From Candidatus Saccharimonadota bacterium (GTDB taxonomy: Bacteria; Patescibacteriota; Patescibacteriia; 2-12-FULL-60-25), in contig OY970357.1 in assembly GCA_963718585.1 (NCBI GenBank), forward strand, positions 120,001 through 152,000: 32,000 bases of DNA, read 5' to 3'. The notes beneath the pieces were generated by a model. It was not told where the DNA came from. It saw only the letters and a program-made list of their open reading frames with translations, and did not search any database. Within the stretch, counting starts at the first letter, position 1; the number at the start of each line of letters is the position of its first letter. Positions 20,368 to 25,466 of this stretch are shown one piece after another. The position numbers and the translations under genes were made by a program.

Positions 20368-22451
20368 ATGCCCCGCGAATACACTCTCCGAGATACCCGA
20401 AACTTCGGGATCATCGCCCATATCGACGCCGGAAAGACGACCGTCTCCGAGCGCGTCTTGTTCTATACCGGTCGTAAACACAAGATCGGTGAGGTGCACG
20501 AAGGTGAAGCTACGATGGACTGGATGGCGCAGGAGCGTGAGCGCGGGATCACCATCACGTCTGCCGCGACGACCTGTTTTTGGAAGGGCAAGCGCCTGAA
20601 CCTCATCGATACTCCCGGGCACATCGACTTCACGATCGAGGTCCAGCGTTCCTTGCGCGTGCTCGACGGCGCGGTCACGGTGTTCGACGGCGTTGCCGGC
20701 GTGGAACCGCAGTCTGAGACCGTGTGGCGTCAGGCGGATAAGTACAATGTGCCGCGCATTTGCTTCGTGAACAAACTCGACCGAATGGGCGCGGATTTTC
20801 AGAAGGATGTCGAATCCATCCGCAACCGTTTGAACAAGCGAGCCTATCCGATCCAGCTCCCGATCGGCACGGAAGCGAATTTCATCGGCATCATCGACCT
20901 CATTACGATGAAGGCGGAGATGTACAGAGACGAGATGGGTCAGCAGATCGAGGAAGTGGACGTGCCGGCAGAATGCTCGAGGCCGCCGAAGGCCGCGCGC
21001 AACGAGTTCCTCGAGGCGTTGTCCGAATCGGATGAAGCGCTCATGAACAAGTATCTGGGTGGCGAAGAGCTGACCGTGGAGGAGATCCGCACCGCACTCC
21101 GCAAGGCCGTACTCGTTCAGGATCTGTTCCCGATCCTGTGTGGATCCGCGCTCAAGAACAAGGGCGTGCAGTTCCTCCTCGATGCTGTCGATTACTACCT
21201 CCCATCGCCGCTCGACGTGCCGCCGATCCAGGGACACGAGGTGGATGATGAAACGAAGATCATCGAGCGCAAAGCAGATGATAACGAGCCGTTCTCGGCT
21301 TTGGCCTTCAAGGTCATGTCCGATCCGTTCGTGGGGAAACTTATCTTCTTCCGCGTGTATTCCGGGACGATCAAGGCAGGTTCCTATGTGCTCAATGCCA
21401 CGACCGGGGAGAAGGAGCGCATCGGCCGCATCGTGCGCATGCATTCCAACGATCCGCGAAGAAGTGGATCAGGTGTATGCCGGTGATATCGCCGCCGCCG
21501 TCGGTTTGAAAACCACCTTCACGGGGCACACGCTCTGTGATGAGGATCATCCGATCATCCTCGAGTCCATCGTCGTGCCGGAACCGGTCATTGAGATCGC
21601 GATCGAGCCGAAGACCAAAGCGGATCAGGAGAAGATGGGCGTCGCGTTGCAGAAACTCGCGGAAGAAGATCCATCGTTCCGTGTCCGTACGGACGAAGAG
21701 ACGCTTCAGACGCTTATTGCGGGCATGGGCGAACTTCACCTCGACATCATCGTCGATCGGATGAAGCGGGAGTTCAAAGTGGAAGCGAACGTCGGAAAAC
21801 CGCAGGTGTCGTACAAGGAGGCGCTGAAGAAGGCGGCCGAGGCCGAAGGTAAATACGTTCGTCAGTCCGGTGGACGCGGGCAATACGGTCATTGCTGGCT
21901 CCGCGTCGAACCGCAGGAGCGCGGAAAGGGCTATGAGTTCGTGGATGAGATCAAGGGCGGTGTCATTCCGCGTGAATACATCCAGCCGATCAACAAAGGC
22001 GTGCAGGAGGCGATGACGCGCGGGGTGGTCGCCGGGTATCCGTTGGTCGACGTGAAGGTCACGCTCTTCGATGGGTCATACCACGAGGTCGACTCCTCCG
22101 AAGCGGCATTCAAGATCGCGGCTTCCATGGCGATTCCAGGAAGCGTGTAAGAAGGGAGGTGTCGCCATCCTTGAGCCGATCATGAAGGTCGAGTGTGTCA
22201 CGCCGGAGGACTACATGGGTGACGTCATCGGCGACCTCAACTCCAAGCGCGGACAGGTCAACGAGATGACGGACCGGATGGGCGCGAAGGTCATCGATGC
22301 GTTCGTCCCGCTCGCTGAGATGTTCGGCTACGCGACGTCGCTCCGTTCCATGACCCAGGGTCGTGCGTCGTACTCCATGGAATTCGACCACTACTCCGAG
22401 GTCCCGCAGAACGTGCAGGCGACGATCGTCGAAGGACGGGCGAAGAAATAA
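20368..22451 (+). pseudogene. fusA: elongation factor G, interrupted by two +1 frame breaks as assembled (near 21454 and 22136)
   Basis: Three consecutive ORFs (20368..21486, 21140..22150, 22071..22451) in frames 1, 2 and 3 together give a full EF-G. It starts [14 protein letters not shown]...DTPGHIDF...RMHSND. After the first break it reads [19 protein letters not shown]...[11 protein letters not shown]. After the second it reads [41 protein letters not shown]. Confidence 0.9.
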
Positions 22452-22465
22452 GATCCGGATCGATG

Positions 22466-22492
22466 AAGAGCGGGCACATGCCCGCTCTTTTG
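22466..22492 (+). terminator. intrinsic terminator after fusA
   Basis: AAGAGCGGGC-ACAT-GCCCGCTCTT followed by TTGT. Confidence 0.65.
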
Positions 22493-22498
22493 TATATG

Positions 22499-22522
22499 AA
22501 AAGACCCCGCGTGTGCGGGGTC
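22499..22522 (-). terminator. intrinsic terminator of the sigma4/alphaCTD gene (copy 1 of a 24-nt repeat)
   Basis: On the minus strand GACCCCGC-ACAC-GCGGGGTC-TTTT. Identical 24-mer at 23788-23811. Confidence 0.65.
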
Positions 22523-22538: not shown

Positions 22539-23711
22539 TCAAGGACGACGGAAAAGGGGGATCTCTTTTTCGTCGAGTTCGCGGCGCCGTTCGGCGACCG
22601 CGTTCCGCATCTCGTCATCGAGCTTCATGCCGATCTCGGCGCCATGTGAGGCGATGACCTCTTTGACCTCTTTGATGCTTTTGCGACCGAAGTTCGGTAC
22701 GTTGAGCAACTCGAGTTCCTTTTTTTGGACCACTTCGCCACAGAGTTTGAGATCCAAGTTCCGAAGGCAGTTCTCACTTCGAACGGAGAGGCAGATATCC
22801 TGGATCGGCGTGAGAAGGAAATCGAGCAGCTCAAGTCGCTGCTGGATCTCTTCAGGGAACAGGGCCCTACGTTGTCGTTCGACCTCTGCGCGCCATGCCG
22901 CGACTGGATCTGAGATGAGACGAAGGTCATGGGCAATCTGTGGGTTCTGCAGCCAACGGATCGCTTCGGCCTCGATGTGTCGCATGCGCTCGGGACTTTT
23001 CCCAAGTGTCTCTCCGATCTCTTTGAGTGTCTGATTGGCGCATCCGATCCCGAAACGCATCCGGAGGACGCGGGCGAGGTGCTCGGGGAGCTTCAGGAGG
23101 TGGACGTCGATCATGCGTTCCACGAGACCGTCTTCAGGCCACGCTACGAGCGCGCTCGAAAGACGCGTCTCGACGGCGAGCCCGATGAGCGCACGCTCCG
23201 CATCTTCGCGCGATGCGGGCAATGCGTCGGGTTCTGCACGAAGATGGTCGAGGTAGGTCTCGAAGAGTTCCGATCTCTTCGTGTAGCCCCGGACCCTCGA
23301 GGCGTTCGGGTTGAACAGGGTGGCGAGCAGATCGCGGTACGGTCTCTGTGATTCCGCGGAATCATGGAGTCCTTCATACGCGGTCTCCAGGCGCTTCGCG
23401 AAGGCCTGGAGCGCATCGATCTGCAGCCATGTTCGGACGTGGGTGAGCACGCTGATGGGCGAAGGCTCCTGCCCCCACGAGAGGGACTTCTGTTGGTTGT
23501 TGAGCCAAAAGGCGAAGACAGCGGTGTACCGTCGCTGCAGATTACGGATGCGTTCCGGGTCTGCTTCCGCGCGGACGATCTGGAGATCGTTCTTGATCGT
23601 CGTTGTCGAAACATCGACGATCTTGGCGATATCCTCATTTGTGAATCCAAGGACGTAAAGTTCTTTCACGCGCGGGAGCCGCGCGCGTTGAGCCTCTTTG
23701 TAATCCCGCAT
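22539..23711 (-). CDS. chimeric transcription-related protein: N-terminal HTH, sigma-70 region-4 domain and RNA polymerase alpha-CTD-like domain
   Basis: 390 aa with SD AAAGGAAG upstream. Residues ~200-258 read LLKLPEHLARVLRMRFGIGCANQTLKEIGETLGKSPERMRHIEAEAIRWLQNP (sigma r4.2 pattern). Residues ~296-364 read LLTPIQDICLSVRSENCLRNLDLKLCGEVVQKKELELLNVPNFGRKSIKEVKEVIASHGAEIGMKL (alpha-CTD pattern). Confidence 0.85.
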   Translation of the reverse strand: MRDYKEAQRARLPRVKELYVLGFTNEDIAKIVDVSTTTIKNDLQIVRAEADPERIRNLQRRYTAVFAFWLNNQQKSLSWGQEPSPISVLTHVRTWLQIDALQAFAKRLETAYEGLHDSAESQRPYRDLLATLFNPNASRVRGYTKRSELFETYLDHLRAEPDALPASREDAERALIGLAVETRLSSALVAWPEDGLVERMIDVHLLKLPEHLARVLRMRFGIGCANQTLKEIGETLGKSPERMRHIEAEAIRWLQNPQIAHDLRLISDPVAAWRAEVERQRRALFPEEIQQRLELLDFLLTPIQDICLSVRSENCLRNLDLKLCGEVVQKKELELLNVPNFGRKSIKEVKEVIASHGAEIGMKLDDEMRNAVAERRRELDEKEIPLFRRP

Positions 23712-23787
23712 GCGACTTCCTTTCTGGTGTCGATGTGCATCGGAGACGTATCACAAATCAGCCACATTGTCAATGTATCTACACTAA

Positions 23788-23811
23788 AAAAGACCCCGCG
23801 TGTGCGGGGTC
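23788..23811 (-). terminator. intrinsic terminator (copy 2 of the 24-nt repeat)
   Basis: Same 24-mer AAAAGACCCCGCGTGTGCGGGGTC, 6 nt downstream of the stop of the 23817..24280 gene. Confidence 0.65.
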
Positions 23812-23816
23812 GAGGG

Positions 23817-24280
23817 TCAGGCTTTGCGCCAGGGGTCTTCCGGGTGATCGCGTTCGTACGTCCGCGTGTCGCCGGGTTTCATCCGCGATCGTTTGACGGT
23901 CGCTTCGAGCGTGTCGATCGCGGCCGTGAAGGCTGGGACCTGGATCGGCGTGATCGTGTAGTGGAGTCGCCGGCGGTCTTCGCCCTCCACGGACTCGCCC
24001 TTGATCTGGAGTCCGAGGTTCGGGACCGGTCCCATCGAGAGGGCGCGTCGGATCTCCGAGAGATGGACGATGAAGATCGCGAGCCTTGTCTTGAAAACGG
24101 TTTCGCAGACGCGAGACGTCCGGCGCGCGAGCTTGCGTACGGCGCCGGTTGAAAGAATGTCAGGATCAGGCCGTCCGGATCTTCCCGCATCTCGACCGTG
24201 ATCCGATAGTTCCAGATCGGTGATCTGTTGATCGGGAGCGTGGTCCGGTTCGGACGGTTCTTGTGGAATGAGCGGTTCAC
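23817..24280 (-). pseudogene. orphan ~154-aa protein, frame-disrupted as assembled (one base apparently missing near 24140-24155)
   Basis: Promoter, SD (AAAGGAG) and GTG 24280 open a G/C-ending frame: MNRSFHKNRPNRTTLPINRSPIWNYRITVEMREDPDGLILTFFQP. It then decays into Ser/Arg junk. The -1 frame carries the G/C-ending continuation AVRKLARRTSRVCETVFKTRLAIFIVHLSEIRRAL...LHYTITPIQVPAFTAAIDTLEATVKR...DPWRKA, ending at 23817. Confidence 0.55.
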
Positions 24281-24302
24281 TCGGTGCTCCTTTCGTTGCC
24301 GT

Positions 24303-24552: not shown

Positions 24553-24963
24553 TCAGGGGATGATCGCGTGGAACTTCTGCGCGACGCTCGCGTCTGTGTA
24601 CGAGATCTCGAGCGGATCCGTGATCGACCTGCGGACGAGGCACATGTACCCATTGCGTCCCACCGGGTGCTGTTTCGCGAGTGTGAGCGCTTCGCGCATC
24701 GTCGTGAAGAAGTTGAAGACAAGGTCCGGATCGACCTCGTAGACGTGATCCGGTCCATCGAACTGTCGAAGTTTCGCATCGATCTGGAGTTTGCTCCCAA
24801 ACGGAGGCGGAACTTCGATCTTGCGTCGGACCACCGCATCGGGGATCCAGATGGCGAAGACGCCCTCGAGGCCATACCAGGACAACATGGCGTTGAAGCT
24901 GATCCAACGCTGTCCGGCCACATCCCGATAAAAGACCTCGCTGTGCCACATCTGTCTGTTCAT
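24553..24963 (-). CDS. orphan hypothetical protein (136 aa)
   Basis: ORF 24553..25014(-) trimmed to ATG 24963, which has AAAGGGTGA upstream. G/C-ending codon bias. No recognised motif. Confidence 0.6.
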   Translation of the reverse strand: MNRQMWHSEVFYRDVAGQRWISFNAMLSWYGLEGVFAIWIPDAVVRRKIEVPPPFGSKLQIDAKLRQFDGPDHVYEVDPDLVFNFFTTMREALTLAKQHPVGRNGYMCLVRRSITDPLEISYTDASVAQKFHAIIP

Positions 24964-25091
24964 GCTGCTCACCCTTTCTTGGTTTCCGAAGGAGCATCGC
25001 CGTATCAGGGACACTACGACCGCCCGCTCCTCTCGTCAACCAGTTGAACCCTTGCATGCGGCCTTCGCGTACGGTTAGATGCAGACAACCT

Positions 25092-25466
25092 ATGTCCATC
25101 CAACGTATCTTTGAGTCCGCCCGCAAAATGGGCGTTCCGGTCATCCTGACCGATCCGGCCGGCCGTGATCCCATGGTCGTGCTCACGCTTGAACAGTTCG
25201 AGGCCATGAATGGAGAGCCGCCGGCGCGCCCACGACCGACGCCCCCGGTCCGTTCGGCACCCCGTACCGCACCCGTCCAGGAACCCGTCGTGGAGTCTCC
25301 CGCAAAGGCGCCGATCCGTCTGGCGGATGACCGGGAGGCGGACGCTCGGGCTGAGGAGGCACTGAAGGCCTTTGAGACCATGGCCGGATCCTATGTCGAA
25401 AATGACGAAATTCCGCTAGAAGAGCGCTTTTATCTGGAACCCGTCGATGACGGCGACCAAGCCTAG
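25092..25466 (+). CDS. hypothetical protein with a weak Phd/YefM-antitoxin-like N-terminus and a Pro-rich/acidic disordered tail
   Basis: ORF 25044..25466 trimmed to ATG 25092. MSIQRIFESARKMGVPVILTDPAGRDPMVVLTLEQFEAM resembles the ..G.PV.IT..GKP.AVL.S.EEYE.L pattern. The rest is low-complexity. Confidence 0.5.
   Translation: MSIQRIFESARKMGVPVILTDPAGRDPMVVLTLEQFEAMNGEPPARPRPTPPVRSAPRTAPVQEPVVESPAKAPIRLADDREADARAEEALKAFETMAGSYVENDEIPLEERFYLEPVDDGDQA

Follow-up and report, generated by a model that had tools for sequence, protein, structure and literature searches.

A Patescibacteria protein family that joins sigma-70 region 4 to the RNA polymerase alpha C-terminal domain in a single chain

Between fusA and tuf in a 32,000-nucleotide stretch of a Candidatus Saccharimonadota genome (contig OY970357.1 of assembly GCA_963718585.1, positions 120,001 to 152,000; hereafter the window) lies a minus-strand open reading frame (ORF) of 390 aa at 22539–23711, in which a first-pass annotation had recognized two pieces of RNA polymerase holoenzyme in one polypeptide: region 4 of a primary sigma factor (sigma4) and the alpha subunit's C-terminal domain (alpha-CTD). 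In RNA polymerase, reading of the upstream promoter half and most contacts with activators fall to these two parts. The locus raises the question of whether such a protein is real and, if so, what it might do; it provides a natural experiment on whether sigma4 and alpha-CTD modules can function apart from the enzyme. The ORF is present with the translation originally quoted and is complete (stop codon at 22539–22541), a protein identical to it (P0001) is on record at NCBI/ENA from a contig of 1,084,458 bp, and the DNA coordinates that had been assigned to three of its segments are arithmetically correct. As described below, it is a divergent member of a real, conserved and uncharacterised protein family of Patescibacteria (the candidate phyla radiation, CPR). 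The observation as a whole is confirmed, and the interpretation that had been placed on it is partly supported.

In profile searches with hidden Markov models both domains scored above the Pfam cut-offs within the one polypeptide, as the annotation had claimed. Sigma70_r4 (PF04545) matched residues 206–255 with 40.9 bits against a cut-off of 24.1 (E=1.5e-10) and RNA_pol_A_CTD (PF03118) matched residues 295–353 with 60.4 bits (cut-off 23.8, E=1.4e-16). The sigma-70 region 4 module, comprising region 4.1 and the helix-turn-helix (HTH) of region 4.2, spans residues 196–256 (22944–23126, on the minus strand like all other segments of the gene) on the basis of Pfam, hhalign and PDB profile matches. 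Alignment of the protein with RpoD by hhalign gave a probability of 99.5% (E=6e-23) with region 4 alone aligning, and the family profile matched the region 4 chains of SigA and RpoD in the PDB at E ~1e-24. The alpha-CTD module occupies residues 300–365 (22617–22814), as judged from Pfam and structure superposition. Its predicted model superimposes on the E. coli and Caulobacter alpha-CTD with a root-mean-square deviation (rmsd) of 0.7–1.1 Å, a target-normalised template modelling (TM) score of 0.8–0.95 and 46% identity in Foldseek, so that the identity proposed for this domain is borne out by a structural match of about 1 Å to the E. coli domain.

The rest of neither parent protein accompanies these modules, in agreement with the earlier statement that sigma regions 2 and 3 and the alpha N-terminal domain are missing. 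With NCBIfam the same two segments fall on the C-terminal ~90 positions in the RpoA models and ~60 in the RpoD models, and the RpoA models of NCBIfam and Pfam score 30–82 bits against cut-offs of 228–523; because these scores fall well short of what the full-length models require, RpoA and RpoD are represented by their terminal domains only. The alpha N-terminal domain (PF01193/PF01000) was not found, as Pfam and NCBIfam matched RpoA at its C-terminal end only, and for lack of this domain the protein would not be incorporated into core enzyme. Judged by its domain content it is not an alpha subunit. On the sigma side, Sigma70_r2 and Sigma70_r3 were matched by 0 of 32 family members even at E<=1, hhalign of residues 1–199 with the RpoD alignment (regions 1.2–3) gave 0.2% probability, the model of the N-terminal half alone found no sigma factor in the PDB with Foldseek, and BLASTP was significant over region 4 only. 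As regions 2 and 3 are undetected, the protein would not work as a conventional sigma factor and, having region 4 and no region 2, would not be classed with the sigma-70 factors. That it might nevertheless be a true alternative sigma factor, with a core-binding and -10-reading part that has diverged past recognition within residues 1–190, is suggested by Foldseek alignments of the full model over ~315 columns to the actinobacterial primary sigma chains 8dy9_F and 9e85_F (probability 0.96–0.98), and by a tblastn alignment of residues 64–268 that extended onto RpoD with E=6e-5. However, the Foldseek alignments have TM scores of 0.17–0.22 at 14–17% identity and, like the tblastn alignment, are carried by region 4, and with the searches above they leave this explanation most improbable. 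A cryptic sigma region 2/3 in residues 1–190 was accordingly ruled out by Pfam, Foldseek, hhalign and BLASTP.

Preceding these two modules are two further ones. Residues 1–50 (23562–23711) form a three-helix HTH with the family motif MRDY..R.R.P.V.EL..LG[LF][ST]..EIA.....S..TI..D, in which R11, L18, G22 and D42 are almost invariant in the family alignment; AlphaFold2 (AF2) places its helices at residues 4–20, 25–32 and 36–49 with a predicted local distance difference test (pLDDT) value above 90. Residues 19–44 match Sigma70_r4_2 with 23.8 bits, slightly below the Pfam cut-off of 25.7, and the N-terminal HTH of family members gives weak matches to HTH_23, HTH_7, HTH_38 and GcrA. The match to GerE, the LuxR/GerE-type tetrahelical HTH, covers this N-terminal HTH only and reached 15.6 bits against a cut-off of 23.5, and the protein is not a regulator of that type. 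The same HTH, with the motif RDY..R.R.P.V.EL..LGF..EEIA....S.STIQRDL, is also encoded by itself in stand-alone proteins of ~110 aa (loci L018 1923–2387, L021 11264–11644, L025 3052–3444 and L026 11570–12049), and since it is found alone it is a separable module.

The HTH is followed by an all-helical middle domain of ~130 residues (residues 58–190, 23142–23540) with the motifs RYAEL, LA.WL, GY..LL...FG, P.S(R) and IMP.W, for which no Pfam match and no relatives outside the family were detected. A separate AF2 model of residues 1–199 (pLDDT 83.8, predicted TM score (pTM) 0.77) gave no Foldseek match at E<=0.001 in the PDB or BFVD, and within it just the first 50 residues look like small HTH domains. 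Sigma4 and alpha-CTD are linked by a helical extension of residues 257–299 (22815–22943) with the motif L..L..P.G..L...L and then a charged helix; AF2 predicts helices at 257–267, 269–284 and 287–299. Across the family the distance between P601 of sigma70 and S263 of alpha, ~10 residues of which already belong to the alpha-CTD, is 47–133 aa with a median of 63. The chain ends in a charged helix and tail, residues 366–390 (22542–22616; AF2 helix 366–382), that are poorly conserved in the family. The AF2 model of the whole chain, built from a 32-sequence family alignment, has a mean pLDDT of 87.7 and a pTM of 0.58.

The extent of the family was determined with an exhaustive HMMER search, in which a two-sequence profile was compared with 1.84 billion cluster representatives (clusters at 50% identity). 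This gave 155 matches at E<=1e-30; among the best 150, ~95 are 360–420 aa long and cover the profile end to end. The same four modules are collinear in alignments of 32 and then 93 members, and the window ORF aligned end to end with 31 and later 92 homologues. With the family profile the window protein reaches 358.7 bits, matching positions 1–399 of 400, and it is 24–32% identical to 31 members, 32% being the maximum to any other member found. In word-indexed searches, RpoA and RpoD matches filled the list of 8,000 candidates, with two relatives of the same architecture among the matches listed. A word-indexed search with a profile of the N-terminal part only found nothing, and a search of the GTDB representative genomes with the single protein found no relative.

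These homologues also decide whether the fusion might be an artefact of assembly or gene calling that joins two genes. Such errors do occur nearby, since fusA in the same window is broken by two single-base insertions, but the ~95 homologues of the same architecture are independent, the members coming from separate NCBI, ENA, JGI and Logan assemblies, and the window protein aligns with them unbroken. Because independent assemblies carry the same full-length architecture, an assembly chimera is excluded, and the probability that we would still attach to an artefact is negligible.

The distribution of the family was sampled with a degenerate DNA pattern of the N-terminal motif that recovers about one third of the members, so that the resulting picture is under-sampled. 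Among GTDB genomes the pattern was found in two genomes labelled 'Patescibacteria group bacterium', one labelled 'Candidatus Uhrbacteria bacterium' and one unclassified 'bacterium', and it was also matched in groundwater and other metagenomes. A member scoring 458.9 bits, likewise among the matches of the pattern in GTDB genomes, is present at 279–1622 of CAYJWY010000038.1 (L016), in a metagenome-assembled genome labelled 'uncultured Gammaproteobacteria bacterium'. This label is unconfirmed, and either the family extends beyond Patescibacteria or the bin or its label is wrong.

The first-pass annotation had described the architecture as unfamiliar, and this stands insofar as no characterised protein that has it was found in the literature; a full-text search returned no description of the architecture or the family, an absence that is no proof that none exists. 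The architecture is not unique to the window, however, given ~95 clusters, and it is already in databases, because the NCBI pipeline names members by domain, as 'DNA-directed RNA polymerase subunit alpha C-terminal domain-containing protein' (MEW6407441.1, MFA6447548.1 and MFH1694600.1).

What the modules might be used for was approached through the conservation of residues with assigned contacts in the RNA polymerase proteins. E. coli residue numbers were mapped onto the family and agree with the PDB alignments. Across 93 members, no other part of the chain is as well conserved as the '265 determinant' of the alpha-CTD for minor-groove binding: R265 is present in 92 of the 93, G296 in 89, K or R at 298 in 83, S or T at 299 in 81, N268 in 79 and C269 in 71, and the DNA-contacting set is complete in 66. 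The -35-reading residues of sigma region 4.2 are kept as well (Q589 in 76/93, R586 in 74/93, R588 in 67/93, E585 in 61/93 and R584 in 50/93), and the complete RER.RQ motif, found in 28/93, is typical of the family and not universal. In the E. coli holoenzyme, sigma R603 touches alpha D259/E261 where the alpha-CTD lies beside sigma4 on UP/-35 DNA, and PDB 3N97, a solved complex of alpha-CTD, sigma4 and (UP,-35) DNA, is among the structure matches to the alpha-CTD model, which superimposes at ~1 Å on alpha-CTD/DNA complexes of known structure. In the family, R603 is present in 48/93 members and an acidic residue at alpha position 261 in 63/93, and the two tend to co-occur (38/10/25/20, Fisher p=0.026, by a statistic that ignores shared ancestry).

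Among the roles that had been suggested at first pass (a promoter-architecture factor, an RNA polymerase appropriator, or a decoy), the conserved DNA-contact residues would favour one that involves DNA binding. Because these residues are kept though all parts that anchor sigma and alpha in the enzyme are absent, we read the protein as a DNA binder; as the likeliest of the explanations considered, the family could well consist of free-standing transcription regulators that read the upstream half of promoters, and on its sequence features it would be classed as an HTH-type transcription factor built from the promoter-reading modules of RNA polymerase. Such a family would have arisen when copies of sigma region 4 and alpha-CTD were joined and placed after an HTH and a helical domain peculiar to the family. 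Sigma4 would engage a -35-like hexamer in the major groove and the tethered alpha-CTD a neighbouring A/T-rich minor groove, while the N-terminal HTH would add a third DNA contact, so that the three modules together would lie on the UP/-35 half of promoters, presumably over a composite target site. The outcome might be that holoenzyme is blocked or competed with, or else that promoter DNA is held for it, and the sign of regulation could accordingly be either. Sigma4 and alpha-CTD also occur together in other architectures (P0056 and P0069).

Several points weigh against a promoter-reading regulator. DNA binding is itself inferred from conserved residues, and the analysis yielded no target motif. 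Given its pTM, the full-length model does not predict with confidence how the domains are placed relative to one another, residues 1–190 stand outside the functional assignment, and the window copy lacks R584, Q589 and R603. Moreover, the conserved residues of sigma4 that would face the flap and activators fit docking to RNA polymerase equally well.

This last point introduces the main rival explanation, in which the protein is an accessory factor that docks on RNA polymerase, its sigma4 sitting on the beta-flap tip and replacing the primary sigma region 4 or standing beside it. Such a factor would add an extra alpha-CTD and HTH to the enzyme, and would be an appropriator or a split-sigma-like partner that shifts promoter use. 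K593, R596, K597, R599, H600 and L607-type positions of sigma70 face the beta-flap and activators, and many of these positions, which are dispensable for DNA reading, are conserved in the family: K or R at 593 in 66/93 members, R596 in 64/93, K or R at 597 in 67/93, L598 in 87/93, R599 in 77/93 and H600 in 44/93, together with the helix that follows R603 and its L607-equivalent leucine, and the R.RFG motif of region 4.1. However, the same residues also contribute to fold stability, some of them contact the DNA backbone, and the window copy is altered at most of them (K593E, K597W, R599Q and H600N). We regard docking as possible but somewhat doubtful.

A broader form of both ideas is that the family may represent a part of the transcription machinery of CPR bacteria that has so far gone unrecognised, acting either in trans as an upstream promoter reader or as a detachable piece of an RNA polymerase subunit. 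In the first form a single chain may bind UP/-35 DNA and pass it to the holoenzyme or keep it from it; in the second, docking on the beta-flap may bring the number of alpha-CTDs on RNA polymerase to three and that of -35-type HTHs to two. This we consider doubtful, but if it were true either form would be a global regulator in organisms with very few transcription factors. The family is widespread in a bacterial branch that is uncultivated and genome-reduced and has scarcely understood transcription control, and it offers a concrete candidate global regulator there.

The prominence of the minor-groove determinant would also suit a general architectural or nucleoid-associated protein, in which three weakly specific modules on flexible linkers bend or bridge A/T-rich DNA. 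R265, present in nearly every member, belongs to the best conserved feature, the alpha-CTD is elsewhere a portable and often tandem module of up to 11 copies, and the family genes have housekeeping surroundings and no conserved partner. On the other hand, the base-specific residues E585, R588 and Q589 are kept in two thirds or more of the members, and a non-specific binder needs none of them, which makes a purely architectural protein unlikely.

The portability of the alpha-CTD is seen in proteins other than RpoA among the matches of the exhaustive profile search (P0041, P0050, P0056, P0065, P0069 and P0003). They include 11 tandem copies in a 1031-aa protein, three copies in a 365-aa protein, and a ResIII helicase with four copies, as well as fusions of sigma4 with four copies and Sel1 repeats, of four copies with sigma4, and of T5orf172 with two copies. 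No description of these proteins was found in the literature.

The window copy is atypical in its sigma4 and not in its alpha-CTD DNA determinant. In the alpha-CTD, R265, N268, C269, G296, K298 and S299 are all present, with E261 replaced by C. The first-pass annotation had held region 4.2 to follow RpoD almost motif for motif. This is true of the residues that form the fold, but the resemblance is weakest at the functional surface, where R584P, Q589H, K593E, K597W, R599Q, H600N and R603I distinguish the window protein from E. coli sigma70. Its region 4.2 has the sequence SPERMRHIEAEAIRWLQNPQI at the place of [ST]RER[IV]RQIE. in most members, and in place of the canonical RER.RQ motif and LRHPSR tail it has PER.RH and LQNPQI. 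Because R584, Q589 and R603 are lost, the argument for -35 reading is weaker for the window gene than for the family. If the window protein binds DNA, its preference probably differs from TTGACA.

The family was compared with the closest systems that are known. It shares with region 4 of RpoD/SigA (PF04545) the same four-helix 4.1/4.2 HTH fold and, in most members, R584, E585, R586, R588, Q589 and the LRHPSR tail. Unlike RpoD/SigA, it is without regions 1.2, 2 and 3, and would thus be incapable of beta-prime clamp binding or -10 melting; it carries after region 4 a conserved helical extension and the alpha-CTD, and in the window copy several reading and surface residues are altered. With the alpha-CTD of RpoA (PF03118) it has in common the close superposition and sequence identity given above and the full '265 determinant', which serves binding to the minor groove and UP elements, but it has no PF01000/PF01193 domain and its alpha-CTD is tethered to sigma4 instead. 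The arrangement in PDB 3N97 brings together the same two modules, the contact residues of which are frequent in the family, whereas in the family both modules are in one chain and apart from RNA polymerase, and their arrangement on DNA would be conjectural.

The nearest functional analogy is offered by WhiA, a stand-alone regulator with a C-terminal, sigma4-like HTH that is conserved in genome-reduced bacteria (PMC10243135, PMC11701221). Both reuse an HTH of this kind outside a sigma factor, but WhiA has LAGLIDADG homing-endonuclease-like domains and no alpha-CTD, and its HTH is only sigma4-like, while the family has nearly the region 4 of a primary sigma factor. The sigma-70 protein MzaA of the MZA anti-phage system (NF041931, PDLC02203) also shares the sigma region 4 segment; the window protein scored 40.2 bits against a cut-off of 800 in region 4 only and is not an MzaA, which has another architecture. 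No defence genes were found near the window gene, the neighbours of which are fusA, tuf and ORFs without a Pfam match.

In each of six different contexts the family gene stands alone on the chromosome, monocistronic and amid unrelated housekeeping genes. The first has dnaA/dnaN, trigger factor and an H+-translocating pyrophosphatase, the second murG and a Mur ligase, the third a penicillin-binding protein, pgi and rplU, the fourth an ABC transporter and a trypsin-type protease, the fifth an H+-translocating pyrophosphatase and hflX, and the sixth, that of the window, fusA and tuf. No conserved partner or operon was found across these six contexts. The sole recurring neighbour is the pyrophosphatase gene, which adjoins the family gene in L003 (11219–13216) and L005 (7828–9822), downstream of it in one contig and upstream in the other, the contigs being otherwise different.

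Upstream of the family genes, promoters resembling TTGAC[ACT]-17-TAnnnn can be read from the sequence of 8 of 9 homologue upstream regions and are inferred as such. A near-consensus TTGACA -35 with a 17-nt spacer is present in the window (23745–23773) and in L001, L002, L003, L005, L008, L010 and L012, and a TGn extended -10 in 5 of 10 upstream regions (the window and 9 homologues). No shared motif beyond ordinary TTGACA-type promoters was found in the upstream regions of the family genes. Since these promoters use TTGACA, a TTGACA-like -35 exists in these organisms; if the protein reads -35-like hexamers, one might speculate that its own promoter is a candidate target, by autoregulation. In the window the predicted promoter consists of TTGACA (23768–23773), a 17-nt spacer with TGA at its end and TACGTC (23745–23750); a simple promoter scan did not list it, the -10 hexamer being weak.

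The gene has its own Shine-Dalgarno sequence and terminator, as stated in the first-pass annotation. The Shine-Dalgarno sequence AAGGAAG, identified by eye, lies 4 nt 5' of the ATG (23716–23722, minus strand), and an intrinsic terminator, the hairpin GACCCCGCACACGCGGGGUC followed by UUUUCAUA, lies downstream of the ORF at 22495–22522 on the same strand; its hairpin (22503–22522) has a calculated folding energy of -19.3 kcal/mol (z=-6.0) and is followed by a U run. The placement of the gene antisense inside the str operon, by contrast, was mistaken, as no gene of that operon is overlapped; the gene is on the opposite strand, in an insert of 3.1 kb flanked by the fusA stop (22451) and the tuf start (25579), and fusA has its own terminator at 22465–22490.

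The insert could point to a regulator or decoy carried by a remnant prophage or other mobile element that entered between fusA and tuf. It interrupts the usual fusA–tuf pair and also holds ORFs without a Pfam match, and the gene is bracketed by identical hairpins of 24 nt. The sequence AAAAGACCCCGCGTGTGCGGGGTC is present at 22499–22522 and again, without a difference, at 23788–23811, where 0.02 chance matches are expected, and the 32-kb window has no more than these two copies. Each copy is the intrinsic terminator of one minus-strand gene, that at 23788–23811 terminating the ORF upstream of the 390-aa gene. Weak sigma-type matches in PHROG and PADLOC point the same way, but they are limited to the sigma4 segment. 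Neither an integrase nor a transposase was found within the insert, its G+C content is the same as that of its surroundings, and elsewhere the gene sits between unrelated housekeeping genes. By tblastn, 50,697 phage and 72,556 plasmid records gave only fragments of rpoA-CTD or rpoD region 4 and never the full architecture, and the DNA pattern of the N-terminal motif, which recovers about one third of members, found no family member in IMG/VR viral contigs. A mobile origin for the gene is therefore very unlikely. An origin from phage, plasmid or defence systems was rejected, there being no full-length matches and a normal composition.

The remaining ORFs of the insert have no Pfam match. Directly upstream of the 390-aa gene is the minus-strand ORF at 23817–24290, with a GTG start, an AAGGAG Shine-Dalgarno sequence and an apparent frame change ~50 codons in; its end is the second copy of the terminator hairpin. 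Two more ORFs lie at 24553–25014 (minus strand, 136–153 aa) and 25044–25466 (plus strand, 140 aa), the latter being proline- and alanine-rich.

The fusA gene for EF-G (20368–22451, plus strand) is divided among three reading frames by two single-base insertions, an additional C in AACGATCCGCG and an additional A in ATGGCGATTCC (near 21454–21455 and 22133), and its pieces encode, in order, GTP_EFTU with D2, EFG_III with EFG_IV, and EFG_C. The gene being essential, these breaks are most likely indel errors of the assembly, although from its sequence fusA could still be a pseudogene. The window, part of a 1.08-Mb contig, would fit a Patescibacteria genome of this kind, as it encodes elsewhere a DUF4012 protein, a surface protein with DUF11 and compactly arranged housekeeping genes.

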